Positions 1 through 48,700 of a DNA stretch of 64,000 nt are shown here, in pieces. Each line of letters begins with the position of its first letter. Position 1 is the stretch's first letter. The position numbers were made by a program, and so were the translations under genes. Below the pieces are notes generated by a model that saw only the letters and a list, made by a program, of their open reading frames with translations, ran no database searches and was not told where the DNA came from. Origin of the DNA: Dehalococcoidia bacterium (lineage in GTDB: Bacteria; Chloroflexota; Dehalococcoidia; Lucifugimonadales; UBA3495); NCBI GenBank assembly GCA_963668585.1, contig OY764869.1, positions 1,099,106 to 1,163,105 of the forward strand, in the 5' to 3' direction.

Positions 1-763
1 CCGGTTGGTCGCTGTCCATCCATTCGGCGTATGAGCCATCGTACAGGCGCACGTCGTAGCCCGCCTGTTGCATGGCCAGCCACGCCACGGATGCGCGCAC
101 GCCGCTGCGGCAGTATGCGATCACCGTATCGTTGTTGGCGACGCCCAGGTAGGCCAGCCGGTTCCGCAGTTCGTACTGGTCGATGAGCAGATTGCCGTCC
201 TCGCCGGTGGCGTCAGCGTGGGGCAGGTTGATGGCGCCGGGGATATGCCCGGGCCGATGGTCCATCTCCACCTCGCCGTTGAACTCCTCCACCGTGCGGG
301 TATCCAGCAATAAGGCGACGCCGGGGTTCGCCACATCGTCCAGGGTGGCCCGCAGCGTGGAGTTCAGATTCATGGTGAAGGGTTTGGCTGCCGCGGCAAC
401 GGGCCGGTACAGCACCTCGCGGCCCTCGTCCTTCCAGGACTCATACCGGAGGTCCATGATGTGTACGTCCTCGCGGCCCAGGTATTCCAGCGCCCAGGCT
501 GCCATCGCCGCGTTGCGTCCATCCTGGTGGTCGTAGAGAACCGGCGTAACGTCGTCGCCCAGGCCCGCGTCGCCAAACGCGGAGGCGAGTTGCGCCGGTT
601 CGCCCAGCCGTCCGTCGGGTCCCTGCAGTTTTTTGAAGGGCACGCTGACGGCGCCCCGCAGGTGGCCCATCAGGTAGCGCATCGCGGACCGGGGATCGAT
701 TACCAGGAACTCCGGGTTCCCGATGCGTTCAGCGACCCATTCGGCCGAAACAAAGGTCGCCAT
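1..763 (-). CDS. rhodanese-domain sulfurtransferase (tandem rhodanese domains); 3' end cut by the window edge
   Basis: The minus-strand frame is open from the ATG at 761-763 to the window edge, so it is absent from the ORF track (no stop in the window). My translation reads MATFVSAEWVAERIGNPEFLVIDPR...GHIPGAINLPH...VIAYCRSGVRASVAWLAMQQAGYDVRLYDGSYAEWMDSDQP. It has the CRSGxR active-site loop typical of thiosulfate/3-mercaptopyruvate sulfurtransferases. Its start overlaps the upstream OsmC stop as ATGA. Confidence 0.8.
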   Translation of the reverse strand, partial: MATFVSAEWVAERIGNPEFLVIDPRSAMRYLMGHLRGAVSVPFKKLQGPDGRLGEPAQLASAFGDAGLGDDVTPVLYDHQDGRNAAMAAWALEYLGREDVHIMDLRYESWKDEGREVLYRPVAAAAKPFTMNLNSTLRATLDDVANPGVALLLDTRTVEEFNGEVEMDHRPGHIPGAINLPHADATGEDGNLLIDQYELRNRLAYLGVANNDTVIAYCRSGVRASVAWLAMQQAGYDVRLYDGSYAEWMDSDQP

Positions 764-1296
764 CAGCCCACCATTTCAAAGTCGGTTTCGACCGCGGTGC
801 GATTGGCAACGGATTGCGTCACCGGGGACCCTTCCACCGCCAGACGCCAGATCTCCTTCAGTGTATCCTCGTCGGCGTCGGCGCGCACGAAGCACTTGGC
901 GGAAATCTGGCCGTAGCCCGGGTTCCCCTCGTCCTCCACGCCGGCCCACTTGCGGATGTTGTCGAAGTAGCCTTCCACGGCGATCTCAAGGTCGTGAATC
1001 CGCACGCCCTGCTTGGTGGCGTTGACCACGAATCCCACGGTCATGCAACTGCCGATGGCGGAGAGCAACTGCTCGTGAGCGCTGGCGGCCACGTCGGTGG
1101 CGGTCAGGTCGCCCGGTTCGTCCATGTCCACCTGGTGGTTGCGCATGTAGGCGCGGGCGCGCATCCCATCCTGCCACACCACGCGCGACTTCCACGGGCC
1201 GGTAACGGCGTTGAAAACGTCCGGGTCCCGGAAGGAATCGAGCACTTCGGCCAGTTTTTCCCGGGGCAAGCCATTCAGGTTTTCTTGTTCGGCCAT
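763..1296 (-). CDS. OsmC family protein (peroxiredoxin-like)
   Basis: 177-aa ORF with an OsmC-like layout, including ...LLSAIGSCMTVGFV... and ...ISAKCFVRAD... An AAAGGAG RBS lies upstream of the ATG. The stop overlaps the next gene's start. Confidence 0.85.
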   Translation of the reverse strand: MAEQENLNGLPREKLAEVLDSFRDPDVFNAVTGPWKSRVVWQDGMRARAYMRNHQVDMDEPGDLTATDVAASAHEQLLSAIGSCMTVGFVVNATKQGVRIHDLEIAVEGYFDNIRKWAGVEDEGNPGYGQISAKCFVRADADEDTLKEIWRLAVEGSPVTQSVANRTAVETDFEMVG

Positions 1297-2983: not shown

Positions 2984-3211
2984 TGGTTGTACTCCGGGGG
3001 CCGCGGCGTTGCCTGGTGTGCATTCGTAGGGCGCGCGTTGGTGCGCAGCCAATGAAATAACGGCCGCAAATAATCTACACCATAAACATGCGAGTGTCCA
3101 AATTAATTGAGCAGCGCCAACCGTTGAGACTTGAGGTGACTGCCCACGTCGAATCGGACGGCGCCGGGCGGGCGCCGTCTTTCCGGAGGGGCAGAGGGTT
3201 TCTCGCCCCTG

Positions 3212-3283
3212 CGGTTGGTGGTTCGTTGGTTGGCGGTTGGTTTTGTTTCGGAGGGTTTGGTTTTGGTGTGAGAGGCGGGATTC
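3212..3283 (+). repeat. G/T-only low-complexity tract (GGTTGG-type repeats; C/A-rich on the minus strand)
   Basis: Read directly: ggttggtggttcgttggttggcggttggttttgtttcggagggtttggttttggtgtgagagg. It is intergenic, between the MetE-like gene and the Type ISP gene. Confidence 0.6.
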
Positions 3284-3710
3284 CGGATCGTTGTCAGCGC
3301 ACGGCCGGTACGCAACTATTTGAACGGCAGTTCCGTGGTCGCAGGACTATTTGGTTGAGTCCCTACCACGCGGGCCCGAACAATCCCGGTGGGCCAGTGC
3401 GGCACCGCCGGTGAGTACGTTGGTCGGATATCGGCGAATTGCCACCTGGACCGGTTGCGATTTGTTGCTGACGGGGTTGGCCGTCGATCCGGAAATCTGC
3501 CTCTCTGGGGTTGGGGTGGAGCAGCTGCTTGATCTAGACAGTATTAGGATATACGTTCGTATTGGCGGTGTCAAGGGGGTTTTTTACAGGAGAGAATTGC
3601 ATATCTCGCGTTTTCGATGCGCGGCTCGTGAATTCGCAACACCGGTGACGGAAACCGGAATCGAGTTTTACTCGAGATGCGGTGCCCGGATTTGGCCGAG
3701 GGTGCCGCGA

Positions 3711-5930: not shown

Positions 5931-7960
5931 GTACCGTTGGCGATGCGCTGGTGGAGCATGGCGGCGTTCATCAGCAACAGGGCGGCGATGGTGCAGCCAT
6001 CGGCTTGGCTCTTTCGATTGTCGTCCTTCAGGTTGTCCAGGCCGAAGTGGTGGTCAAGGGCAGGCTGGAGTTCGTCATTCCGCAAAGCGTGAGCGGCTTC
6101 CCGGACACTGGTTTCCAGGACGTTGAGGTCTCTGACCACGCGGTTGTCCACTAGGCCAGATTTGGCGAGGAGGTTCATGCGGATGGCGTTGCCCTCGTCT
6201 TCCAGCTCGCTGAGGCGCAACTGCATGGCAATGTCCGCGCGTTCCGCGCGGGTGGGCCGTTTCGTCTTCTCCTTGCTGGAAGGGATGCGTTGGCCTTCGC
6301 CCTTGTTGATCATGTTCCGCGCCTTGTCCTTGGACTTGCGGACGTCCACCTTGCCGCGGATCTCATTGGCGGAGGGCTTGGCGCGGACGACGGTATCCCT
6401 GCGTAGTTCGTTGCTGCCGTCTTCGTTCTTTTTGCCAGCGATTATTTGGGTCGGCTCGCTTGGCTGCGTCTGGTAGGGCTGTGCTCGAACATCTGCGATA
6501 TTTCTGTCGCCGTCACCAGCGCATTGCCCATCCGCGGTGGTTGCCAGTGGTTGAACGTTGACCACCGGCTCGGTTGATGCCGTTTCGGTGATGGGGCCAA
6601 ATTCTCTGGCTAGAGTGCTCTTGTCGTCGAGCACCCGCTCCACAGCAAGTTCCGCTTCTCCCGGAGCACCCTCGTGTTCGCGGTAGTGGATGCGCTTGCT
6701 CTCGCCACCGGTGGCGACGGCCACGATGGTGCGCAGCGATTCCGGCGTTTTAGGAATGTACAGGTGCAGCAGTTCGGACAGGTTTTCCTCGATGCGCTGG
6801 TCGTGGGCGCGTAGGGCCAGCAGTATCTGGCCTAGTTCCTGCCAGCCCTCTTCCATGTTGCTGGAGCTGAGCCAGCTCTCGGGGTCGGCGTTGGGCGGGA
6901 TGAGGATGGGGCAAATGATGTAGCCCATGTCCTTGCCATCGGTGACGCGCATGGCTCTGCCCACGGCTTGGATCACGTCGATGGGGCTCTTGCGAGCTTC
7001 CAGGAAGGCTACAGCGTTCAGCGTGGGCGAGTCTGTTCCTTCGCCGAAGATGCCGACATTGATGATGCCATAAGGGTGGTCTTCAGTGGATTCGGCCAGG
7101 AGGCGCTTGGCATTGTCGCGGGCGGACACGTTGCTGGTGGCGTCCAGGTGCTCCAGTGTGTAGTTGGCGGCAGTCTGTCCTTCTTGGTGGTCGTCGAGCC
7201 AGCCCTGGAGCCAGTTGCGTACGGCGGGAGTTTGGAGGGCGTCGGCCATGTTCTTGGACTTGTCCACGGTATTCATGAAAGCGATGCAGGACTTGATTGG
7301 TACGGTCCCCTCACCGCGTTGCTGCGTGGCCCCACCCATGGCCAATGAGAAGGCCAGCCCGCGCAGGAAGTGGGAAGAGGTGAGGGGATTGCGTCCTTTG
7401 CTCTGGGTTTGGCCGGCGAGGGTGTTGGCGATGCGGTATTCATCAGGGCCGTTGACGCCCACGGCGATAATGCGGTAGTCGGCCAACCATTCGTTCTTGA
7501 CGGCTTCCACGTAGCTCTTGCGGTACAGTTCTATGCCGAAAGTGCCTTCGTCGTCCATGCTGCGGACTATCCAGTCGCTGGTTTGGTCTTGGTTGACTCG
7601 GCTGGTGTCATAGATGCGCGGTGTGGCGGTCTGATAGACGCGGTAGGTGGCGGGGAAGGCGTGGTTGTCGTGGCACAACGTGAAGTCGCGGATGCGCTGC
7701 TCCTCTTGGGACATCTCGGCTTTTTTGGCTTTGCCCTTGCGTCGCAAGCCGGCGGTGCGGTGGGCCTCGTCGCAGACCAGGACTTTGGCCGAGACGCTGG
7801 CTTCTTGCAGTGCCTCGGCGATGCGGCTGCCGCTCTGGTAGGTGCCGAAGATCACGCTGACTTGATCGGCGTGTTGCCCGCCGCGGATCCAATCGGAGAT
7901 TTCCGTCGGGTTGGTGGTGACCTTGCCTTTGACCTCGGAAGCGCTGACGTTGCTGTTGTC
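5843..7960 (-). pseudogene. Type ISP restriction-modification enzyme, middle part (SF2 helicase-like translocase, DEAH box)
   Basis: Track ORF 5843..7855 contains VCDEAHRTAG and a helicase C-terminal region (...GEGTDSPTLNAV...QAVGRAMR...). The frame stays open upstream to the IS630 junction at 7960 (LDNSNVSASEVKGKVTTNPTEISDWIRGGQHADQVSVIFGTYQSG). Confidence 0.75.
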
Positions 7961-8757
7961 TAGGGTAGGGTCCGCGGCCGTGTTTCGAGTGCTTTCTTTC
8001 TTGGGGTCGTAACCAGCCGTCTCGTCCGAGCAGACGGCCAGTGCTCGGATGTCAGTATCGGCCTGCTGGAGGTACTCGCGGCGATCTGGGCTACTAGTAC
8101 CCAGTCAACGTTGGAAAGGCAGGGGTAGAAGCGATGGAGTTTGGTTCTGGCGTGGGCGGTGCTGAAGCGCCAGTTGATCGGGACGCACGCGGTGTTGCGC
8201 CGCGTTTCGTAAGCCGTGATGGCGCGTTCCAGGGCGTCGGCATCGGGGTTTCTGCCTTTGAGACAGGCTCGGCTGAGCGCGCTGAATTCGATCTCAGCCA
8301 TGTTGAGCCAGCTGGCGTGCTTGGGGGTGTGGTGAAACTCCAGGCGTTTCACGATGCGTCGGGCCTCGGCCGCAGGGAAGGTTTCGTACAACGACGCCAT
8401 GCGGTGGGTGTTCAAATTGTCGAGAACCACGCGGATGACGGGCGCGTTGGGATACGCTGTGTCAACCAACCATTGCATCTGGTGGGCGAAGTCCACCATG
8501 GTGCGGCGCTGGGTGATGGCGATGTGGCGCCAGCCGGCCAGCGGCTCGCAGAACAGGAAGAGGTTGCGGGTGCCGCCGCGGCGGTACTCGTAGTCCTGGC
8601 GTCGGGGTCGTCCCGGCTGGGCGGGCAAGGGTTCTCGCACATCAGCCAGCAATTGAGTGGAAGTCTCGTCGAAGCACACCACCGGTCGGCTGGGGTCGTA
8701 AGGCTCGGCGTACAGGTCCAGCACGTCCTCCATGGCCGCCACAAACTCCCCGTTCAT
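7960..8757 (-). CDS. IS630-family transposase, DDE catalytic part (orfB)
   Basis: 265-aa ORF (...VVCFDETS..., ...VVLDNLNTH..., ...ASWLNMAEIEFS...). Upstream in this frame it reads NVLKPWQKRQWCISQ, the IS630 hallmark. The TAG stop (7960-7962) is built from the last IS base pairs plus the TA target. Confidence 0.85.
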   Translation of the reverse strand: MNGEFVAAMEDVLDLYAEPYDPSRPVVCFDETSTQLLADVREPLPAQPGRPRRQDYEYRRGGTRNLFLFCEPLAGWRHIAITQRRTMVDFAHQMQWLVDTAYPNAPVIRVVLDNLNTHRMASLYETFPAAEARRIVKRLEFHHTPKHASWLNMAEIEFSALSRACLKGRNPDADALERAITAYETRRNTACVPINWRFSTAHARTKLHRFYPCLSNVDWVLVAQIAASTSSRPILTSEHWPSARTRRLVTTPRKKALETRPRTLP

Positions 8758-10241: not shown

Positions 10242-11540
10242 TTATTTGGTGGTCATGTGGCGTATCTTGTCGAAGTTGCCCGTCCTCAAGCGGGCAATCA
10301 TGGTTGCTAGGTAAGCGATCCTGGACATCTTGGCGTGTAATCTTATTTTTGCGATACCGAGGGACTGGTGTCGATCGAGCAACCTGGAATGCTTGGCGCT
10401 GCGAAAAAAGCGTTCGACGGTCTGACGCATTTTGTATAACTGCTTCCACTCCACGGTGAATCGTGGAATGACGCCAACTACTCGGAGAGCAATCCCTTCT
10501 GGCTTTTCCCAGTAATCCGAATCGCAAGTGGTGAAGAGGCTGTCGCCGTTTTTGAGATGACAACCTTCTGGATCGCAACGGAACCTGTGGCCTTTGTCGG
10601 TGTCAGACTCCAAATATTGCATCGGGGCCCCGCCCACGCAAGTAGGAATTCCTTTTTCGGTGAATATGCCACCGTGCAGGTTCGTGTTCGATGGCGCCCT
10701 GAGAGGCGTAATCGGTATGGTCCCGTTATTCACCAGAGTTTGTTGGTGGTTCCGGCTATCGTAAGCCTTGTCGCACATGATGTATTTCAGCGGCATATGA
10801 GGGTGGCGTGTTCGAATGTGTTCAATGAGCGGAAGTAACTGCTTGACGTCGCTTTCGTTTGCCGGCAAGGTGATGCTGGCCAGCGGGACTCCGTATAGGG
10901 CGTCTACAATCGTGTGTTCCTTGTAACCGTAGAACGCCTCGGTTTTCCCCTGCTGCGGGCTGCTCCGCTTTCTGGTGCGGTGACCCCACTTGGCGTCAGG
11001 GTCGGTTGCGTCCCACTGTTCGCTTTTTCTGGGTGGACGACCGTATGCGGGGATATCGGTTGAATCGATGGCCAAATAAGTGCCGAGTTGTGGAGCATTC
11101 GGCGAGATGATGTGTTGAGCTTTGTGTTCCTCGATAAGTAGGTGGATCGACGTGGTGCATTCTGCGATGGCTTGGTCCACTATCGATTGCAGGTCTGGAT
11201 TCCGAGCGATGCGTGATTTGAAACGCGAATATGTAGCCTCGGTGAGCGGGCGGTCCAAACCGCAAATATCAGCCAAGCGTTGGTCGGCGTTGAGTGTGTC
11301 TAGGAACCTGTTTGCGTATCGTATGTTCAAGACGAACTGTAGCAGGAATGCGCGCCATAGCGCTTCGCTCGGGATCCCGTTGCGGCCATGATGACGGCCG
11401 TTTCTGCGAAGCGACTTAAGCTCTCGGAGCAGAGAGGCAGAGTGAACCGCATCGAGTATCGCTTCAATCAAAGCGTAGCCCGATTGGGGCGTTTGGGCTT
11501 GAGTTGCGGCTGTGGTCCGCTTAGAATGCGATGCGTCCAC
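10242..11540 (-). CDS. DDE transposase, IS4/IS5 superfamily (DDE_Tnp_1-like)
   Basis: 432-aa ORF with candidate catalytic residues in LAIDSTDIPAYG, YIMCDKAYDS and TVERFFRSAKH, plus FYGYKEHTIVD. GC is visibly lower than in the flanks. I could not define the IS ends. Confidence 0.75.
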   Translation of the reverse strand: MDASHSKRTTAATQAQTPQSGYALIEAILDAVHSASLLRELKSLRRNGRHHGRNGIPSEALWRAFLLQFVLNIRYANRFLDTLNADQRLADICGLDRPLTEATYSRFKSRIARNPDLQSIVDQAIAECTTSIHLLIEEHKAQHIISPNAPQLGTYLAIDSTDIPAYGRPPRKSEQWDATDPDAKWGHRTRKRSSPQQGKTEAFYGYKEHTIVDALYGVPLASITLPANESDVKQLLPLIEHIRTRHPHMPLKYIMCDKAYDSRNHQQTLVNNGTIPITPLRAPSNTNLHGGIFTEKGIPTCVGGAPMQYLESDTDKGHRFRCDPEGCHLKNGDSLFTTCDSDYWEKPEGIALRVVGVIPRFTVEWKQLYKMRQTVERFFRSAKHSRLLDRHQSLGIAKIRLHAKMSRIAYLATMIARLRTGNFDKIRHMTTK

Positions 11541-12196: not shown

Positions 12197-13705
12197 TTGT
12201 CGCGTCTGAGGTTCTTTGCTACGCTGGCGCGCACCCCCAAGAGCCCCCTGGATTGCGCCGTGAGTACGCCAGACCGATACCAGATCTACGACCTCGAAGA
12301 CGCCGTATTCGACGAGATGTTCCTCCCGGAAGGAGCGCCGCGTCCCCATTGCGAGCGACTCTTCAGCACGCTGTCCGACTATTCCGACGATCAGTTGACC
12401 GGAATCCAGGAGCGGGTCACCCGTTCCTTCTCCAACGAGGGAATCACCTTCACCGTGTATGGGGACGCCGAAGCGGAAGAACGCATCATCCCCATCGACT
12501 GCATACCCCGCCTGCTGCCCAAATCCGAGTGGGACTTCCTCGACGCCGGCCTCACCCAGCGGCTCAAAACCCTCAACCTGTTCATCCAGGACGTGTACGG
12601 CGATGCGCAAATCGTCGCCGATGGCGTGATTCCCGCCGAGGTGGTGTACGGATGCCCGCATTACCGGCCCGAGATGCGCGGGTTCACACCGCCCCAGGGA
12701 ACCTGGGTGGCAGTCTGCGGCACCGACATCGTCCGGACCAACGACGGCTTCCTCGTCCTTGAAGACAACCTCCGCGTACCCTCCGGCGTCTCCTACATGA
12801 TCGCCAACCGGAAGGCCACCAAGACCAGCCTGCGCCGCCTGTACCGCGACTCCCGCGTCTGCGAGGTGGAGCACTACGGACGCTTCCTCCAGGAGACGCT
12901 GCGGGAACTGGCGCCCGACGGCCGCGCGAACCCCAGGATCGCCCTGCTGACGCCCGGCGTGTACAACTCCGCCTTCTATGAGCACATGTTCCTTTCCCGC
13001 GAAATCGGCGCCGAGTTGGTGGAAGGCCGCGACCTGCTGGTGCGCGACGGCTTCGTGTACATGCGTACCACCACCGGACTGGAGCGGGTTGACGTAATCT
13101 ACCGACGGGTTGACGACGACTTCCTCGACCCTCTGGCGTTCCGGCCCGACTCCGTTCTCGGCGTCCCCGGCCTCATCGACGCCTATCGCGCCGGCAACGT
13201 GGCCCTGGCCAACGCTCCCGGCACCGGCGTGGCCGACGACAAGAGCGTCTATGCCTACGTGCCCGCCATGGTGCGGTACTACCTCAACGAGGAACCCCTG
13301 CTGCAAAACGTCGAGACCTACCTGTGCCGGAACCCGGAGGGTCTTGAGTACACGCTGGACAACCTCGACAAGCTTGTGGTCAAACGGGTCGGCGAGTCCG
13401 GCGGCTACGGTATGCTGGTGGGGGTTCAGGCCTCGCCGGCGGAGCGCGACGAGTACGCCCGGCAGATCCTGGCCGACCCCAGCGACTTCATCTCCCAGCC
13501 CACGCTGGACCTCTCCCGGTCGCCGTGCCTGATCGACGGCCGTTTCGAGCCGCGCCACGTTGACCTCCGCCCGTTCATCCTGCACGGGCAGACGACCCGC
13601 ATCGTCCCCGGCGCCTTCTGTCGCGTGGCGCTTCGCCGCGGCAGCATCGTCGTCAACTCCAGCCAGGGCGGCGGCGGCAAAGACGTCTGGGTGATTGAGG
13701 ACTGA
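12197..13705 (+). CDS. circularly permuted type 2 ATP-grasp protein
   Basis: 502-aa ORF with family-typical stretches (...IPIDCIPRLLPKSEWDFLDAGLTQRLKTLNLFIQDVYGD..., ...NAPGTGVADDKSVYAYVP...). The true start may be slightly downstream. Confidence 0.8.
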   Translation: MSRLRFFATLARTPKSPLDCAVSTPDRYQIYDLEDAVFDEMFLPEGAPRPHCERLFSTLSDYSDDQLTGIQERVTRSFSNEGITFTVYGDAEAEERIIPIDCIPRLLPKSEWDFLDAGLTQRLKTLNLFIQDVYGDAQIVADGVIPAEVVYGCPHYRPEMRGFTPPQGTWVAVCGTDIVRTNDGFLVLEDNLRVPSGVSYMIANRKATKTSLRRLYRDSRVCEVEHYGRFLQETLRELAPDGRANPRIALLTPGVYNSAFYEHMFLSREIGAELVEGRDLLVRDGFVYMRTTTGLERVDVIYRRVDDDFLDPLAFRPDSVLGVPGLIDAYRAGNVALANAPGTGVADDKSVYAYVPAMVRYYLNEEPLLQNVETYLCRNPEGLEYTLDNLDKLVVKRVGESGGYGMLVGVQASPAERDEYARQILADPSDFISQPTLDLSRSPCLIDGRFEPRHVDLRPFILHGQTTRIVPGAFCRVALRRGSIVVNSSQGGGGKDVWVIED

Positions 13706-15884: not shown

Positions 15885-16011
15885 GGCCATTTGATTATTG
15901 GTGATCGATGACGTAGTCGGCTCATCCTGAGCGTGTCTAAGGACGAGCGGACGGTGAGCAGGGGGCGTTCTGGCAACGGCAATTGCCTGTTGCCAGGATA
16001 ATCGAATGGCC
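15885..16011 (+). repeat. intergenic palindromic MITE/REP-like element, copy 2, full length (core 15917-15950)
   Basis: The terminal inverted repeats are ggccatttgattatt and aggataatcgaatggcc. The core is tcggctcatcctgagcgtgtctaaggacgagcgg. The R-arm is gttctggcaacggcaattgcctgttgccagg. Confidence 0.8.
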
Positions 16012-16129
16012 GGGACCAGCAACCCTCCGGCATTGCGGAAGTTGACATATCCCTTTATCATTGAAATTCAGGTTCGGGCCGCCGCGGCGCCTTGGCAATC
16101 CACGTCCGAACAATCCGAGGAGTATTCAA

Positions 16130-16555
16130 TTGGCTGACCAGCCCAGCGAAAAAGCCATCCAGCGGATGCGCCTGTTTGTCGAGCGTTACTGCGAAAAATC
16201 GGGTACCCACACCCACCCTGAAGAAGGGGTCGCAGAATCCGTAATCCTGGGCCTGGCCCAGAACGTGGATGAAATCGGCCGGCCGCTCTGCCCCTGCCGC
16301 TTCTATCCCAGCAAGGAAGAAGAGGTCAAGCATCGCACGTGGATTTGCGCCTGCGATGATATGCAGATCTACAAGTACTGCCATTGACTGCTCTTCGTAA
16401 CTGAGGGCGGTCTGCCCATCACCGAACATCTTCCCGAAGACCACGAAGGCCGCGCCATCTACGGCGAGGTGAAAGACCCGACGCCCGACAAGGGCCGGCC
16501 CCTGCGCCACAAGGCGGAGGAACGCGAACAGGAGCGCAGGGATCGACCTTCCTGA
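16130..16555 (+). CDS. ferredoxin:thioredoxin reductase catalytic subunit with an in-frame TGA (candidate selenocysteine) at 16385-16387
   Basis: The start is TTG at 16130, with a GAGGAG RBS upstream. The pattern CPC-x16-CAC-x8-CH[TGA]LLFVT matches the FTR CPC/CPC/CHC signature. The same frame continues to the TGA at 16553-16555. A hairpin lies at 16394-16426. Confidence 0.7.
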
Positions 16556-16671
16556 CGCCTCACGCGACGCCGCGCCTCACCCGTGGCAAGATTCAAAGAG
16601 GGCCGCTCCCGCATGATTGGGGGAGCGGCCCTTCTGCGATGCAACGTTGTCTCCCATCCGCGCCAACATAG

Positions 16672-16720
16672 ACGCAGTCCGCTCATCCTGAGCCTGTCGA
16701 AGGACGAGCGGCCGGCGAAC
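16672..16720. repeat. intergenic palindromic element, copy 3 (core 16679-16711, arms degenerate)
   Basis: The core is ccgctcatcctgagcctgtcgaaggacgagcgg. Confidence 0.7.
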
Positions 16721-18435: not shown

Positions 18436-19206
18436 ATGGCCCGGCTTGAAGACTACCAGGACCGATTCCAGTACGTCCGGTTCCAGCGCGAGGACGGCAT
18501 CCTGCAGATGACTCTCCACAGCGACGGCGACACCCTGCAGTGGGGCGCTGGCCCGCACACCGAACTGCCCGAGGTGTTCCACACCGTGGGAACCGACACC
18601 GAGAACAAGGTCATCATCATGACCGGCGCGGGCGACGGGTTCACCGGCCCCGCCGGCAGCAGCGACACCGTCCCGCGCCGCACTCCCGAGCAGTGGGACG
18701 CCACCTTCTGGGAGGGCAAGCACCTGTTGGGCAACCTGCTCAACATCGAGGTGCCCATCATCGCCGCCATCAACGGCCCCGCGCTGCGGCACTCCGAACT
18801 GCCCCTGATGAGCGACATCGTGCTGGCCGCGCCGCACACCACCTTCCAGGACTCCGGACACTTCATGAGCGGGCTGACCCCCGGCGATGGGATGCACATC
18901 ATCTATCCGCTGCTCATGGGTCTCAACCGGGGACGCTATTTCCTGCTCACCGGCCAGATGCTGGATGCCGAAAAGGCGCAGGAGTTGGGCCTGGTGGCCG
19001 AGGTGCTGCCCTCCGACGAACTGCTGCCGCGAGCCTGGGAACTGGCCCGCCAACTGGCCCAACAGCCGCGCCTGGTGCTGCGCTATTCCCGCGTCCTGCT
19101 GACCCAGAAACTCAAGGGGGAACTGCACGACCTGCTGGGCTACGGCCTTGCCCTCGAAGGTCTGGGCTCCGGCCAGGACTACCTCGACCGCGGCCAGGGC
19201 CGCTGA
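18436..19206 (+). CDS. enoyl-CoA hydratase/isomerase (crotonase) family protein
   Basis: 256-aa ORF with a crotonase-fold pattern (...VIIMTGAGDGF..., ...PIIAAINGPA...). Confidence 0.8.
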   Translation: MARLEDYQDRFQYVRFQREDGILQMTLHSDGDTLQWGAGPHTELPEVFHTVGTDTENKVIIMTGAGDGFTGPAGSSDTVPRRTPEQWDATFWEGKHLLGNLLNIEVPIIAAINGPALRHSELPLMSDIVLAAPHTTFQDSGHFMSGLTPGDGMHIIYPLLMGLNRGRYFLLTGQMLDAEKAQELGLVAEVLPSDELLPRAWELARQLAQQPRLVLRYSRVLLTQKLKGELHDLLGYGLALEGLGSGQDYLDRGQGR

Positions 19207-26078: not shown

Positions 26079-26096
26079 CCCTCGGCGCGTTGACGG

Positions 26097-26507
26097 CTAA
26101 TAGAATCTCAGCAATTCGTCGCTTCGGTCGTAGTGCAGTCGCCGGTAATTGATGAAGTCTCGGCCCAGCAACGACGGCAGTTCATTGACCACGGCCTTCG
26201 GGTCATCATCCGGGAGGACAATATCTATCGCCAGGGAAAAAGCGTATTCGCCATCATCATCCGCGAATACGATGATCGCCTCTTCCGGGTAGCATATCTG
26301 AGTGCCGCCAATCCCAAGAACGGTTTCCGGTTCTCCCGAAAGCCGGTCGAACCTGCAACCAACCCGTACCCCATCCATGGGATGCAGCACGGTTGAGTAT
26401 GCCCCGGTGTCCACAAGAAACTCGACGAAGTCCTCGACCCCCAGTTGCTCAATGATCAGGCGCCCCTGAACAAAGGGTTCATCCCCGTCAAAATAGCCGG
26501 TGATCAC
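26097..26507 (-). CDS. retropepsin-like (clan AA) aspartic protease, second copy
   Basis: Contains an LVDTGA motif. The GTG start at 26505-26507 overlaps the upstream stop as GTGA. The longer N-terminus of the track ORF overlaps the upstream gene. Confidence 0.65.
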   Translation of the reverse strand: MITGYFDGDEPFVQGRLIIEQLGVEDFVEFLVDTGAYSTVLHPMDGVRVGCRFDRLSGEPETVLGIGGTQICYPEEAIIVFADDDGEYAFSLAIDIVLPDDDPKAVVNELPSLLGRDFINYRRLHYDRSDELLRFY

Positions 26508-26851
26508 AGAATCATCCGGCGAGGCTTGGTGGACATCAACTTCACCGCGAGACCTCTCTTGCCGAGTCCCTTCCCTTCCAGTTTGCCAATCACTCCCGCA
26601 ACGGTCGGGGCTGCGACCAACGTCCAATTTGAGGAAATCCCAACCCACTGGTCGGGATACCTACGCGTCAGTTCGGCACGGTGAGCGCTCAAAAAGACCG
26701 TCCTCTTTTTGTACTGGCGCATCTCGTCGCTGAGTGGCGCAACAGCAATGGGCTGCAGGTCGTGAGGACGTTCCTCAACCAGCATCTCGGTGGCTAATTC
26801 CGCCAAAATATTCTCCGGTTCCAGCTGTGCAGGGCAAACTGTGACAGTCAA
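26504..26851 (-). CDS. small hypothetical protein, translationally coupled partner of the second aspartic protease
   Basis: 115-aa ORF containing ...HRAELTRRYPDQWVGISSNWTLVAAPTVAGVIGKLE... Confidence 0.55.
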   Translation of the reverse strand: MTVTVCPAQLEPENILAELATEMLVEERPHDLQPIAVAPLSDEMRQYKKRTVFLSAHRAELTRRYPDQWVGISSNWTLVAAPTVAGVIGKLEGKGLGKRGLAVKLMSTKPRRMIL

Positions 26852-39066: not shown

Positions 39067-40539
39067 GTGCTGGGAGTCGCCCTGTGGGACAAGCAGATGG
39101 AGGTGTTGAACGCGGTGCAGCGCGAGCGTCGTGTGGCGGTCAAGTCGGGCAATGGCCTGGGCAAGGATTTCACCGCTGCGGTGGCCGTGCTCTGGTACCT
39201 GTACTGCCACGACCCCGGCATCGTCCTCAGCACCGCGCCCACCTTCCGGCAGGTGAGGCACGTCCTGTGGCGGCAGATTCACGCGCTGCACCGCCGCGCC
39301 AAGGACACCCTGGGCGGCAGGCTCTTGGATACTCGGTGGGAACTGGCGGAAGACCGGTACGCCCTGGGCCTGTCGGCGGACGGCGCCGACCAGTTCCAGG
39401 GTTTCCACTCCGAAAACGTTCTGGTGGTGGTGGACGAAGCCGAGGGCGTGGACGAGGAAATCTACGAAGCCATCGACTCGGTGATGACCTCGGGCAACTC
39501 CACCCTGCTGCTCATCGGCAACCCCACCACCACGTCGGGCCCCTTTTACCGCGCCTTTCACGAGGAGAGCGGCATCTACACCACCATCACGATCTCCGCG
39601 CTGGAGTCGCCCAACGTGCGGGCCGGCAGCGTGGAGGTGGCGGGCCTGACCACCGCGGAATGGGTGGCGGAACGGCGAATCGTCTGGGGCGAGGACAGCG
39701 ACCTGTTCCGCGCCCGCGTCCTGGGACAGTTCCCGGAGAGAGGAGAGGACACGTTGATCTCCATGAGAGACATCCAGGCGGCAGTTTATGAGCCGACCGG
39801 GGACGCTTTTACAGAGATAAACAGGATGAACAGGATGAACGGGATGCCCGGCTTTGATCCGGAGGTTGCCTCAGAAACCGGGCAGTCTCCGGATGGCAGC
39901 GCAGGGGCGGACGATCATTCGCCCCCACCCGAGCGAGAAGGCCGATTTCAGGCGGCTGATCCCTTCGGTATGTTCCAGCCCATGATGAGCCGGGCGCTTG
40001 GTCGGGCGGCCGGCCCGGTGGTCATCGGCGTTGACATCGCCCGCTTCGGCAGCGACCGCACCGTCGTGCTGGTGCGGCGCGGCGACACCGTCGAATCCAT
40101 CCGCACGTTCTCCCGCCTCGACACCATGGCCTCGGTGGGCCAGGTGATGGCGGCGATACGGGAGCACAGTCCGGATCGGGTCAACGTGGACTCCATCGGC
40201 ATCGGCGCGGGAGTGGTGGATCGGCTGCGCGAGTTGGGAATGCGGGTATCGGCAATCAACGTTGCCATGAAACCGAAGCGGGACCCGACCTGCGCCAACC
40301 TCCGCGCCGAAGGCTACCAGTCCCTGGTCCGGCGGTTCCGCGACCGGCGCATCAGAATACCCAACGATGCCGGCCTGATCTCCGAACTCGCTTCGCTGCG
40401 CTACGGCTACGACAGCAGGGGCAGGCTGCTGCTGATCGGCAAGCGAAATCTGCGCAGTCGCGGCATCAAGTCCCCGGACAAGGCCGACGCGCTCATGCTG
40501 GCGTTCCTCGACGAAGGTCCCGAAGAGCCCTACCCGTAA
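39067..40539 (+). CDS. phage terminase large subunit
   Basis: The Walker A-like motif is VKSGNGLGKD and the Walker B is VLVVVDEAEG. The nuclease half contains ...VIGVDIARFGSDRTVV... The conserved-looking upstream peptide IDPTRFAVEVLG has no in-frame ATG or GTG, so the true start is uncertain. Confidence 0.8.
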   Translation: MLGVALWDKQMEVLNAVQRERRVAVKSGNGLGKDFTAAVAVLWYLYCHDPGIVLSTAPTFRQVRHVLWRQIHALHRRAKDTLGGRLLDTRWELAEDRYALGLSADGADQFQGFHSENVLVVVDEAEGVDEEIYEAIDSVMTSGNSTLLLIGNPTTTSGPFYRAFHEESGIYTTITISALESPNVRAGSVEVAGLTTAEWVAERRIVWGEDSDLFRARVLGQFPERGEDTLISMRDIQAAVYEPTGDAFTEINRMNRMNGMPGFDPEVASETGQSPDGSAGADDHSPPPEREGRFQAADPFGMFQPMMSRALGRAAGPVVIGVDIARFGSDRTVVLVRRGDTVESIRTFSRLDTMASVGQVMAAIREHSPDRVNVDSIGIGAGVVDRLRELGMRVSAINVAMKPKRDPTCANLRAEGYQSLVRRFRDRRIRIPNDAGLISELASLRYGYDSRGRLLLIGKRNLRSRGIKSPDKADALMLAFLDEGPEEPYP

Positions 40540-40668: not shown

Positions 40669-41982
40669 ATGAAAGACATAACGAAGATGCTGCGCGCATC
40701 CTTCGGCAGACTCGGAATGAACGGGGAATCGGTTGACGGCGGGACGAGTCGGGGTTCCGTGGTGCAGCGCGCCAACCGCGCGGCGGCCGCCAACCGCCTG
40801 CCGGGAGAGCAGTCGGACACCTTCGGCGCCGGCGGCGAGGGTTGGGCGCGTCCGGAATACGGGCGCTACATGGCGACGTCGCCGTCGGTGTACGCTGCGG
40901 TCAGGCTGCGCGCCGAAGCGGTTACGCGCCCGCCGCTGCGCGTGTACCGAACGGAGGCCGCCACTCGCCGCGCGCCAGTGGAGCCGACCCATCCGGTGGC
41001 GCGCCTGCTGGAGCGCGTCAACCCGTGGTACACCCGCGCCGACCTCTGGCGGGCCACGGAAATCTACCTGTGCCTGTGGGGGTCGGCGTTCTGGGCCATT
41101 GAGCGGGGCGAGGACGGACAACCGGAGTTGTGGCCCCTGCGCCCCGACCGCATGGCGATCATACCCGACCGCCGCCGCTACGTGCGCGGCTTCGTGTATC
41201 GCGGCGCGGTGGAGCAGGTGGCCTACACCCCCGACGAGGTGGTGTGGCTGCGCTATTTCAACCCGTTGGAGGAGATGGCGGGACTGTCTCCGCTGGCCCC
41301 GGCCCGGCTGTCGGCGGATATGGGACACGAGGGGCTGCAATTCAACCGACACCTGCTCCGCAACTCCGCCCGTCCCGATTTTCTGCTGCTCACCAACCAG
41401 GAGATGAACGACGCGGAGTTGGAGGACTTCTACGCCCGTTGGGAACAGCGCTATCAGGGTCCCGACAACGCCCACCGTCCCGCCGTGGCGTCGGCCGTGC
41501 GCGACGTCAAGACGCTGGGCCTCTCCCACCGCGACATCGATTTCATCCAGGGCCTGCGCTGGAGCCTGGAGGAGGTCAGCCGCACTTACGGCGTGCCCAA
41601 ACTGCTGCTGGGCGATTTCGAGCGCGCCACCTACGCCAACGTGCAGGCGTCCGACAGGATGTTCTGGCGCAATACCGTCGTGCCCGAGGTGCGGTTCCTG
41701 GAGGACCAGATGAACCGCGCGCTGCTGCCCAAACTGGGGTATCCGGACCTGACGGTTGAGTTCGACCTGTCGGCCGTCGAGGCGTTGCAGGAGGACGAGA
41801 ACAGCCGCGTCCAGCGCGAAACGGCCCTGCTGGATCGCGGGGTCCTCACCATCAACGAGGTACGCCGGGACCACAACCTCCCAGAGGTGCCCTGGGGGGA
41901 GGCGCCAACCCGGCGCGGGCCGGGATCAGCGTCGCAGGGCTCCGACCATCTCCGCATTAACGCCAGTCATTCCCGGGCATGA
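40669..41982 (+). CDS. phage portal protein (HK97-like)
   Basis: 437-aa ORF containing ...LWGSAFWAIERGEDGQPELWPLRPDRM... and ...FLLLTNQEM..., typical of portal proteins. Confidence 0.8.
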   Translation: MKDITKMLRASFGRLGMNGESVDGGTSRGSVVQRANRAAAANRLPGEQSDTFGAGGEGWARPEYGRYMATSPSVYAAVRLRAEAVTRPPLRVYRTEAATRRAPVEPTHPVARLLERVNPWYTRADLWRATEIYLCLWGSAFWAIERGEDGQPELWPLRPDRMAIIPDRRRYVRGFVYRGAVEQVAYTPDEVVWLRYFNPLEEMAGLSPLAPARLSADMGHEGLQFNRHLLRNSARPDFLLLTNQEMNDAELEDFYARWEQRYQGPDNAHRPAVASAVRDVKTLGLSHRDIDFIQGLRWSLEEVSRTYGVPKLLLGDFERATYANVQASDRMFWRNTVVPEVRFLEDQMNRALLPKLGYPDLTVEFDLSAVEALQEDENSRVQRETALLDRGVLTINEVRRDHNLPEVPWGEAPTRRGPGSASQGSDHLRINASHSRA

Positions 41983-45799: not shown

Positions 45800-48700
45800 T
45801 TAGGGCTCCTTGGTCTCCACGGTGAATATGTTGGAAGCGGTATTGCCCCTGGTGTAGATGTTCTCGCCGTCGGCCGTCAGGTCCTCGCCCACCCCGGTCA
45901 CCCGGTTCGCGGGCAGGCTGATGGTCACCGGTTGACCCAGCGTCGTCGGTTCGATGGTGATCACGTACACGCCACCGGAGGATACCTGGATGGCGGTAGC
46001 GCCGCCGTTGGTCACCTCGAAATCGGAGAGTTCCAGGTCCTTCACCGCCTCCACCATGACCCCTGACACTTCGGGGTCGGTTAGCTCGAGGTCGGAGCGG
46101 AACGTCCCGGTGGCCACCCGGTCGGGGTATGACTCCAGCTTGTGCGGCAGGAGGACGGCGGACAGTTTCGCGTTCAACGGAGAGTCATTCTTGTTTGGAG
46201 CCTGGGTCCTGAGCCGTGGCGATCTGGACAGCACGGTGTCGCCGCGGCGGATGCGCAGGTCATAGGTTAAAGGCGCGCCCCGGAAGATGTCGCCGTGCGA
46301 AAACTTGATGCAGGAGGTGTCCATGTCGGCGCACCGGACGTAGTTGTTCCCGCGCGCAATTATCTTCCAGCGTGGGGCAGGTTCCTGGACCGGCAGGTCG
46401 AAATCGACCGTCCATTCCCACAGGTACCGGCTTGACGCTTCTATGACCACGTCCGCATCGGTGGGCACAGCCCGCCCCAGGTCCCAGCAGATATCCAGGC
46501 GCGCCCTGCGGTCGATCACCTCGGCTCCGCACGCCCTGATCGTTTTAGTTTCGAGGCTTCCATCAACCTTGTGCCCCTCGAAAGTCGTGATGGACCCCTG
46601 CAGCCGGTAATGCAAGCTTGCCGAATGACCCGTGGAAGCATGCATGATCTTGCCGCCGTTCGCCATCAGTTGATCTTCGCGCAACTGGATGCCATCGCTG
46701 TCCCGGTCCCCGGCCTGCACGAGGTATGCGAACTCCAGCGTGCTGGTCCCCGAGCCGCCCACATAATGGAACTCCCGGTTTGCCACCGAGTTATCCGAGT
46801 CGCCCACCTCAATCAGGAGTCCTGGGTTACCGAAGGTGGTATCCACAACGACCTCCGTGTCGTACGTCACTGTGATTGTGATGGCGTCCCCTAACCCGTA
46901 CGTGTCCCCATTGTTTTTCGGTTCAGAAATTATGGATATACCATGAAGCCAAATAATTTGAGGAACCTGGTTGACCAGGTGCTTGGGGTCTGCATCCACC
47001 GCATCGTGGGCCAGATCAGCATCAAAGTCCGTGCCCTGCTGCTTGATCGTCCCGCCGTTCAGCATCAGGGAGTCGGCCGCGATTGCGATCCCTTCCTGGT
47101 CGTTGTCGCCGGCAGTAACGGTATAGGAGAAGGTGAGAGTCAGGTTGGTGGCGTCCACTGCCGAGTATTCGGCCCGCTTCACGGAGTCACCAATTGCAAC
47201 CTTGATGTACGGTGTACCGTCGGTTGTATCCACCACAACGGGCGCCCCGAATGTAACGGAGACCTCGATCACGTCGCCGGCAACATACACGTTATCGGCG
47301 CCGGCGTCGCTGGTGAACGCGACGCCGGTGACATCAGCCCAGATGCGGTCGATGGTGACCGTGTAGGTCTGAGTCATCAAACCCCTCTTGCTCACGCTGA
47401 TCGTGATCTCGTTGGCCCCTCGGGACAGGGCAACCTGGTGCCCGGCGGCGGCGGTGTCGGCGTCGGCAGGCAGGATGCTGGCGGTGGCGCCGGTTTCCGC
47501 CGTGACGCTCACGGTTGTTTCGGTGGTGTCCCGCCCGACCGTGGCCGTGTAGTCCACAACATCGGACGTGAACGCGGGCGACAGCGTGATGCCGGCCAGC
47601 GACAGGGCGGTGAGCGTGGCGCGCTCCTCGCTGTTGTGAACCAGGTGTCCGCCCTGGTCGGCCAACGCATCATGGGTCAGCAGGGCGTCGTCGCCGGTGG
47701 TGCGGTTCGTGATGGAACCGCCGTTCAGGGCAAGGGCGTCGGCCGCGATGGACACGCCGTTGGAGTCATCGTCGTCGAGAACCACGGTATAGGAGAAGGT
47801 CAGCGCCTTGCCGGCGGCGTCTGCGCTCGAATACTCTGCGTTGCGCGTTGTGGTCCCGATGGTGAGGGCCACGTGTGGCGTGCCCATGGTCGTATCAACC
47901 TGCACTGCCCTGTCGAAAGTGACCAGGACCTCGATGGCGTCGCCGGCCACGTAGGTGTCGTCGCTGACGGGGTCGCTGCCGAGCGCGATGCTCTCGATGC
48001 GGGGACGGTGATCCTCGAGTTGGAGTGGCGTCGATGAGGACAACGACAGCCGGTAACCGTCATGCTGGTTGGGCGTCCCGGGCACACTGGGGATTGTCGC
48101 CGTGGGGTTGCTTGACGCGCTGGCGGGCTCAACCGTCAGGATTGCGCTGGCCACTTCCCCGGCACGGATGGTGACGCCGGTGGCGCCGCCGGAGATGCTG
48201 GCGTCAGTTACAGTCAGGCGCAGCCACATATTGAAGGGCGCACCCTTTGGCGCAACGGCCCTGAACTGTAAAGTGCCCACGGATTCCAGGCCCACCGGCA
48301 GCAGGATCGGGTTCGTTGCATTGTTGCGCAGGTCAAGTTGGGTCAGCGGACTGCTCAGGTTGGCGAACATGCCATCGGGCAGTTCGTCAAGCTGGTTTTG
48401 GTGAAGGGACAATATTTCCAGGGCCGTCAGATCGTCAATAACACCGACCGGGAGTGAGGTCAGTTGGTTGCGGTCCAGGTGCAGACGCGTCAATGCCGAG
48501 AGGCCGTCAAAGACCCCAGCCGGGAGCCCGGTGAGCTCGTTGATCTCCAGCCAAAGGCTCGTCAGGCTGGTCAGACCATCAAACACATTCTCGGGCAACT
48601 CGGTGAGTCCGTTTGTTCCCAGTTCAAGTACCGACAACGATGACAGGCCGTTGAACAGGTCCTCCGGCAGTGTGGTGAACCGGTTTGCAACCAGGTAAAG

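Follow-up and report, generated by a model that had tools for sequence, protein, structure and literature searches.

A predicted selenocysteine-containing homolog of the ferredoxin:thioredoxin reductase catalytic chain, with a single in-frame UGA, in a Dehalococcoidia bacterium

An in-frame TGA at a redox-active cysteine position

We report a gene whose reading frame crosses a TGA codon at the position of a redox-active cysteine of ferredoxin:thioredoxin reductase (FTR). It lies in a stretch of 64,000 nucleotides (the window) of the 3.73-Mb contig OY764869.1 from a marine Dehalococcoidia bacterium (assembly GCA_963668585.1, positions 1,099,106 to 1,163,105 of the forward strand). Positions 16130-16555 of the plus strand hold an open reading frame (ORF) of 141 codons that belongs to the FeThRed_B family and is interrupted on translation only by TGA 16385-16387. 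We are highly confident that these codons form a single intact gene and that its product, a single-subunit FTR catalytic-chain homolog of 141 residues, is a selenoprotein with selenocysteine (Sec) at residue 86.

Frame 1 from 16130 reads LADQPSEK...CPCRFYPSKEEEVKHRTWICACDDMQIYKYCH up to TGA 16385-16387, continues as LLFVTEGGLPITEHLPEDHEGRAIYGEVKDPTPDKGRPLRHKAEEREQERRDRPS, and ends at TGA 16553-16555. The part that precedes the first TGA can be written L(M)ADQPSEK...RPLCPCRFYPSKEEEVKHRTWICACDDMQIYKYCH, and the segment around residue 86 is ...YCH-U-LLFVTEGGLPITEHLPEDHEGR. Start codons in this clade (16130 in the window; loci L004-L050 among the relatives) are consistently TTG or GTG, not ATG. 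The usual stop elsewhere in the window is also TGA, which ends the complete genes for OsmC (763-1296, minus strand), a circularly permuted ATP-grasp protein (12197-13705) and an enoyl-CoA hydratase (18436-19206), and which serves the FTR gene itself as its ordinary stop at 16553-16555. These complete genes exclude a reassigned code and confirm what a preliminary description of the stretch, made from its sequence, had said of the OsmC, ATP-grasp and crotonase genes.

The Pfam model FeThRed_B (PF02943) matched residues 10-92 of the 141-residue product, in which Cys was put at the TGA position, with 78.9 bits (cut-off 22; E 3.5e-22), a stretch that spans the TGA. The protein satisfies the CPC-x16-CPC-x8-CHC pattern of FTR catalytic chains with the spacing CPC-x16-CAC-x8-CH[TGA]; its middle motif is CAC rather than CPC, a feature shared with Cys-containing homologs. 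The protein aligns without gaps to 1DJ7_A, the FTR catalytic chain of Synechocystis, its residue n lying opposite residue n+1 there, and the TGA falls on Cys87 of CHCMLFLT, the second Cys of CHC. In the same alignment, the cluster ligands Cys55, Cys74, Cys76 and Cys85 of 1DJ7_A are matched by Cys54, Cys73, Cys75 and Cys84 of the window protein, Cys57 by Cys56, and His86 by His85. By equivalence, Cys56 is the thioredoxin-attacking residue and residue 86 the cluster-proximal partner of the redox-active pair. The preliminary description had assigned the TGA to the last Cys of CHC, as the structural alignment now bears out, and the motif spacing, coordinates and following hydrophobic strand that it gave are exact on translation.

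Matches to both Pfam and the Protein Data Bank stop near residue 92. The family does not have the C-terminal part of plant FTR catalytic chains and carries instead its own conserved tail of 50 residues; this extension, part of residues 87-141, is absent from plant and cyanobacterial chains and conserved in Sec and Cys forms alike. No FTRV-like match was found among the roughly 30 ORFs, part of the window total, that were scanned with Pfam. No variable subunit was expected, since FTRV is reported only from oxygenic phototrophs (PMC9025218).

Recurrence of the TGA and selection on the frame behind it

More than 100 database homologs of 141 amino acids, 74-84% identical to the window protein, have CHC with Cys at the TGA column and reach the same C-terminus; none ends at that column. 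Sec forms are absent from the best 120 database matches. A back-translated pattern search recovered the YKYCH-TGA-LLFV junction in 51 GTDB species-representative genomes. These are mostly metagenome-assembled genomes (MAGs) of Dehalococcoidia/SAR202, several of them from sponges, and a few bear the label Anaerolineae, Entotheonellaceae, Actinomycetota or Proteobacteria. All 51 genome loci and the window keep CPC, and the TGA occurs only at the CHU position. The same pattern with TGH at that codon, applied to metagenome contigs, gave matches at at least 120 loci, among which the matches listed comprise 116 with TGC or TGT and 4 with TGA. Recurrence in 51 genomes and four metagenome contigs shows that the TGA is not a read error.

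The frame past the TGA is open for 52-63 codons (55 in most) in every locus that reaches far enough, and the C-termini resemble those of Cys forms; locus L042 is cut short by the end of the fetched stretch. In a neighbor-joining tree of 157 sequences, a crude reconstruction, the TGA forms fall into six clades among the Cys forms, with a Fitch minimum of seven changes. Several independent Cys/Sec switches are clear from this pattern. The ratio of nonsynonymous to synonymous change (pN/pS) between the window and 46 other TGA forms is 0.156 in the 55 codons after the TGA and 0.145 in the 80 codons before it. Selection is alike on both sides, and consequently the downstream part is translated and constrained as is the rest of the gene. 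The comparisons that the preliminary description had proposed therefore agree with its reading: homologs carry Cys at the TGA column and continue beyond it, orthologs have either TGA or Cys there, and conservation downstream is at the protein level, with mostly synonymous change.

A hairpin downstream of the UGA

The stem-loop at 16394-16426 is the minimum free energy (MFE) fold of this 33-mer, at -9.4 kcal/mol, with the apical loop GGUCU at 16409-16413. Its core stem pairs 16402-16408 with 16414-16421, leaving A16418 bulged, and an outer stem UCG/CGA (16395-16397 with 16423-25) closes the hairpin. The structure spans +10..+42 relative to the UGA, and the loop begins 21 nt past that codon. Criteria of the bSECISearch type describe the bacterial selenocysteine insertion sequence (SECIS) as a stem-loop just after the UGA with a G in the apical loop. 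The window hairpin has the stem-loop that these criteria describe. Its loop position, 21 nt after the UGA, and its G-rich apex would fit them as well, and GGUCUGC is presumably similar to the apical part of the SECIS in E. coli fdhF.

Hairpins lie between +13 and +42 in nearly all TGA forms, with sequences and registers that differ. The stem is GGGC/GCCC in the group of the window; in further groups it is GGCA/UGCC (NEAG), CGGAA/UUCCG (L030/L033), GGGGA/UCCCC (L001), GGAC/GUCC (L002) or GUAAACCC/GGGUUUAC (L003/L051), and L037 has GAUGG/CCAUC.

Folding stability was compared at clade level in a 30-nt window moved from -150 to +140 in 3-nt steps, with six Sec and seven Cys clades. At window starts +7 to +13, all six Sec clades were more stable than all seven Cys clades (U = 0, p = 0.0006). 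Start +16 came close (U = 2, p = 0.002), and no other start gave p < 0.005. The hairpin is, at the level of clades, specific both to Sec forms and to this position. G+C content in the hairpin stretch is lower in the Sec set, so that composition does not explain the difference in stability. Codon choice follows the same line: the Gly codon of the loop is GGT in 40/53 Sec forms vs 17/104 Cys forms, and the Pro codon of the 3' arm is CCC in 42/53 vs 25/104, a synonymous-site bias that fits the stem and loop. The structural evidence is one of per-sequence stability, and strict column covariation is not claimed.

Overall, the selenocysteine reading put forward in the preliminary description is upheld by the recurrence of the TGA, the selected downstream frame and the clade-specific hairpin, and FTR selenoproteins have been predicted since 2008. 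The stem-loop that it had drawn at 16394-16426, with loop GGTCT, is the MFE fold, but taken alone it is no better than shuffled sequence. The RNA check that it had suggested had a similarly divided outcome, the hairpin being associated with TGA forms at clade level but having no match to a SECIS family of Rfam.

Selenocysteine decoding and a second gene with an in-frame TGA

Five related loci, L011, L025, L040, L050 and L064, carry a tRNA-Sec gene (anticodon TCA) at no more than 8 kb from their FTR gene with the TGA. The calls were made with ARAGORN and with the Rfam family RF01852, at 66-72 bits against a cut-off of 47. In L064, a distance of only about 1 kb separates the tRNA gene and the FTR gene; in L040 (3006-3444), tRNA-Sec stands immediately 3' of a thioredoxin gene (motif WCGPC). 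The genes for tRNA-Sec (selC), thioredoxin and the FTR selenoprotein may be loosely linked.

Another gene of the window, for a DUF3179 protein at 34999-33422 on the minus strand, also has an in-frame TGA, at 34183-34181. The match to PF11376 (DUF3179) spans the TGA (E 3.9e-73), and full-length homologs (about 540 amino acids) have the first Cys of CTLC at this column (U-T-L-C vs C-T-L-C). The protein begins with a lipoprotein-type signal (…LSCG), and a 7-bp hairpin, CCGGAAU/AUUCCGG, lies 17-35 nt 3' of the TGA. All of its closest relatives (78-85% identical) are called as C-terminal fragments of 243-245 amino acids. Close relatives share the TGA. On OZ220699.1, one of them, the DUF3179 DNA reads ...PISLVY-TGA-TLCGTG... 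(L172), and this chromosome also carries an FTR gene with the TGA (L006). DUF3179 (UxxC/T) is a listed selenoprotein family (PMC13188914), and Dehalococcoidia MAGs with 46-49 selenoprotein genes are among the most selenoprotein-rich bacteria in BSepDB (PMC13326102). Sec decoding in the window genome is indirectly supported by tRNA-Sec in the five related loci, by this second selenoprotein gene and by the richness of Dehalococcoidia in Sec.

Two further candidates in the window were set aside. An in-frame-TGA candidate at 26094-26684 on the plus strand has no Pfam match, and the ORF at 3088-3414, taken up as an OsmC selenoprotein, is not OsmC, the real OsmC gene being the complete one with an ordinary TGA stop noted above.

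Counter-evidence and alternative explanations

A number of results weigh against selenocysteine insertion at this codon. Neither selA, selB, selD nor selC was found in the 64-kb window by Pfam searches of about 30 ORFs and by motif and tRNA scans; no signature of SelA, SelB or SelD appeared when the window and all 171 loci were scanned for motifs, and the only tRNA gene in the window is for tRNA-Gly. The window hairpin alone is not unusual (z = -1.1), with 28/200 shuffles folding equally well, and its 61-nt context gives z = -0.8; the significance of the hairpin comes only from comparison with homologs. Rfam SECIS families had no match over the whole window at gathering scores, and chance hits only in the region at E up to 10. 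RNAalifold found no consensus structure for 15 representatives or for 47 unique sequences, and fixed-register pair counts in two candidate registers were no better than shuffled or slid controls. The lack of a consensus and of fixed-column covariation follows from the different registers of the clades. Finally, a Mann-Whitney comparison of hairpin energies between individual Sec and Cys sequences is highly significant at +13..+42 but not site-specific, with similar differences at +58..+87 and -140..-111. Unrelated windows reach significance in this way because one clade dominates the Sec set, and the clade-level test replaces this comparison. Selenium at residue 86 is, moreover, a prediction from gene sequences, and the window gene stands by itself among unrelated genes, with ferredoxin and thioredoxin as its presumed partners.

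Three other explanations of the TGA can be considered in the light of these data. The gene could be a pseudogene, or the TGA a sequencing or assembly error, in which a recent change from TGC or TGT cut the protein at His85. Close homologs do have Cys a single base change away, and the window hairpin by itself is statistically ordinary, but identical TGAs recur in 51 species genomes and four metagenome contigs distributed over six clades, the downstream frame is intact where it can be read and is under purifying selection equal to that upstream, and the truncated product would be without one of the two redox-active residues. We consider this explanation extremely unlikely. Nearly as little probability attaches to normal termination at the UGA, with a functional fragment of 85 residues and a downstream frame kept for some other reason, for example as a separate peptide. 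Automatic gene calls do stop at the TGA, and some termination competes with insertion in any Sec system. This account is opposed by the lack of a start codon or ribosome-binding site between the two parts, by the end-to-end match of both parts together to single-chain Cys homologs, and by the content of the fragment, which would have neither the Cys87 equivalent nor LLFV, the hydrophobic strand next after that residue in solved structures.

Read-through of the UGA without Sec, by genome-wide reassignment or by insertion of Cys or Trp by a near-cognate tRNA, is also very improbable, if marginally less so. The Sec machinery was not seen in the window ORFs or motif scans and, taken strictly, the conservation data prove read-through only. 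However, TGA ends many complete genes of the window, the FTR gene included, and each of the two in-frame TGAs coincides exactly with a redox Cys column. Furthermore, tRNA-Sec genes lie beside the FTR gene in five relatives, the hairpin occupies the usual position of a bacterial SECIS, and FTR and DUF3179 are both listed selenoprotein families. These observations favor insertion of selenocysteine at residue 86.

Proposed mechanism

Translation would start at TTG 16130 and, at the UGA of 16385-16387, the mRNA hairpin (core 16402-16421, loop GGUCU) would recruit SelB with Sec-tRNA(Sec). Sec would be inserted instead of termination, and translation would proceed to the TGA at 16553. In the folded protein, Cys54, Cys73, Cys75 and Cys84 are predicted by alignment to solved FTR structures to hold the [4Fe-4S] cluster, and Cys56 and Sec86 would form the redox-active pair, with a selenenylsulfide in place of the disulfide and His85 beside it. 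An electron from ferredoxin would cleave the Se-S bond, after which Cys56 could attack the disulfide of thioredoxin while the Sec86 selenolate stays bound to the cluster's unique iron. With a second electron, Sec86 would come free, resolve the mixed disulfide and release reduced thioredoxin.

This scheme is taken from the established FTR mechanism, as attributed to Dai et al. 2000, 2007 where these are cited in PMC2398784 and PMC9025218; in the same citations, the Cys of CHC binds a cluster iron in the one-electron intermediate. In chloroplast FTR, the Cys of CPC (Arabidopsis Cys87, equivalent to Synechocystis Cys57) forms the mixed disulfide with thioredoxin, and the Cys of CHC is its intramolecular partner (bioRxiv 10.1101/2022.10.17.512470). 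Since the CHC Cys is the cluster-binding partner, selenium would sit at the cluster-contacting, resolving position and not at the substrate-attacking one. The likely advantage of Sec would be that of a better nucleophile and leaving group with a shifted potential.

Gene neighborhood points to thioredoxin as the probable substrate in some clades only. A thioredoxin gene adjoins the FTR-Sec gene in L030 (6476-6799) and L033 (5884-6207), and L033 also has beside it the gene for a Pyr_redox_2 flavoprotein about as large as a thioredoxin reductase (7012-7986). In L040, thioredoxin and tRNA-Sec genes are 4 kb from the FTR gene. Loci L030 and L033 belong to the CNFYEDKQ clade, where two alternative thioredoxin-reducing systems appear side by side.

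Relation to known FTR proteins

FTR was described as a new selenoprotein family by Zhang & Gladyshev 2008 (PMC2398784) from two Global Ocean Sampling (GOS) reads. Reviews of 2022 and 2026 list an FTR selenoprotein with the motif CxU, that of 2026 with two Sec residues and the model NF041072. Like these proteins, the window protein is a homolog of the FTR catalytic chain with Sec for Cys in C-x-U beside the cluster. A marine metagenome source, recoding of the bacterial type and a hairpin just past the UGA are also shared. The GOS sequences, however, read ...YCPU...CPC...FCIU... (Dataset S2 of PMC2398784), with two Sec and no His in the motif, whereas the window protein reads CPC...CAC...CHU, with one Sec and the His kept. 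The one complete GOS sequence has about 104 amino acids, compared with 141 and a C-terminal extension here, and identity between the window protein and the GOS selenoproteins is 33%. The window protein scores 50 bits with NF041072, where the equivalog cut-off is 160, and it does not have the two Sec residues (CPU and CxU) that define that model. With a score below the cut-off, a single Sec, and CPC and His intact, it is a member of the FTR selenoprotein class and not the described double-Sec equivalog.

Closest to the window protein are Cys-containing single-subunit homologs of the FTR catalytic chain in non-photosynthetic bacteria (PF02943; Balsera et al. 2013, as cited in PMC9025218), which have the same length, six-residue Cys/His pattern and extension at 74-84% identity but differ in having Cys at residue 86, with a codon that no stabilised hairpin follows. 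Cyanobacterial and chloroplast FTRs (1DJ7, 2PU9, 7BZK) align without gaps over about 90 residues, with ligands, redox pair and catalytic His at identical positions. They differ in being heterodimers with a variable subunit, in having Cys throughout, and in their C-terminus after residue ~92, and their electron supply, photosystem I ferredoxin, is not applicable to a Dehalococcoidia heterotroph. The FTR-like ferredoxin:disulfide reductase of Methanosarcina (4TPU), a non-phototroph, has a catalytic domain that resembles that of FTR remotely (E 1e-6); it is much more distant than the other homologs, lacks Sec and carries a fused rubredoxin domain.

The window protein does not reach the cut-off of any NCBIfam model, the inventory of 2026 has the double-Sec NF041072 form alone, and no description of the single-Sec CHU form was found in the literature searched. 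We suggest tentatively, as a possibility of nearly even standing, that the single-Sec CPC...CHU form constitutes a distinct, uncatalogued subfamily of FTR selenoproteins. As part of this suggestion, the form may be widespread in marine and sponge-associated Dehalococcoidia/SAR202, with at least six Cys/Sec switches. The window protein is a new one-Sec member of a known selenoprotein family, arguably of a new subfamily, and not a new kind of system.

Gene features and neighborhood

The features of the gene are collected in Table 1. The inverted repeat that follows it is a possible terminator, a function suggested by its form and place; it was missed by a terminator scan because no T-run follows it.

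Table 1. Coordinates of the FTR gene and associated elements in the window.
Feature	Position	Strand	Basis or remark
Shine-Dalgarno-like GAGGAG	16117..16122	+	7 nt before TTG start; read from sequence
TTG start	16130	+	Start site shared by relatives, L/V-ADQPSEK, TTG or GTG
CDS part 1, residues 1-85	16130..16384	+	Translation; PF02943; gapless alignment to 1DJ7, 2PU9, 7BZK
UGA predicted to be read as selenocysteine, residue 86	16385..16387	+	Cys column in homologs; TGA recurrence; PDB alignment
SECIS-like hairpin	16394..16426	+	MFE fold; clade-level stability comparison
CDS part 2, residues 87-141: LLFVT and conserved C-terminal extension	16388..16552	+	Sec and Cys forms; pN/pS
True stop TGA	16553..16555	+	Clade homologs end at the same ...ERPS position with TAA, TAG or TGA
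11-bp G+C-rich inverted repeat GGGCCGCTCCC / GGGAGCGGCCC	16600..16631	.	Perfect; between convergent FTR and MFS genes

Upstream of the FTR gene in the window are circularly permuted ATP-grasp and Alpha-E genes in one cluster, together with two small ORFs, and downstream lies a convergent MFS transporter gene. This arrangement is syntenic with L006, L007, L028 and L032, at ~80-86% DNA identity.

A dispersed intergenic repeat of 30 nt, GCTCATCCTGAGCCTGTCGAAGGACGAGCG, occurs in the window in nine copies with 0-3 mismatches (12113, 15920, 16681, 18266, 28174, 33292(-), 38569, 54593(-) and 56381), where none is expected by chance. Two direct copies, at 15920-15949 and 16681-16710, flank the FTR gene. 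The repeat translates to 'LILSLSKDER' or 'RQAQDER' strings in spurious ORFs and looks like a repetitive extragenic palindrome (REP) or a miniature inverted-repeat transposable element (MITE). Genes for DDE_3 and DDE_Tnp_1 transposases and for a phage portal protein are located at 7960-8757 (-), 10242-11540 (-) and 40669-41982 (+), and the portal gene is preceded by an ORF of 490 amino acids (39067-40539) with no Pfam match; these mobile-element genes suggest insertion sequences and a prophage remnant in the window. A single ORF of 2595 codons at 45800-53587 on the minus strand has a strong coding signal, with a G+C content at third codon positions (GC3) of 0.82.

Significance

Automatic gene calls end the FTR gene at the TGA, and the DUF3179 gene is likewise split in databases. 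With both genes miscalled, the selenoproteomes and thioredoxin systems of abundant ocean Dehalococcoidia are probably under-counted. The lineage is already known to be rich in selenoproteins, and the present finding corrects annotation for a widespread marine group.

FTR is a textbook case of disulfide cleavage by an iron-sulfur cluster. The presence of Sec only at the cluster-contacting position, together with Cys orthologs at 80% identity, provides matched pairs in which potential, kinetics and oxygen tolerance can be compared. If the single-Sec form is indeed a subfamily of its own, selenium would be bonded transiently to iron of the [4Fe-4S] cluster (Fe-Se) in the catalytic intermediate, with sulfur still as the nucleophile that attacks thioredoxin, and nature would have provided an experiment on the contribution of Sec at the resolving position.

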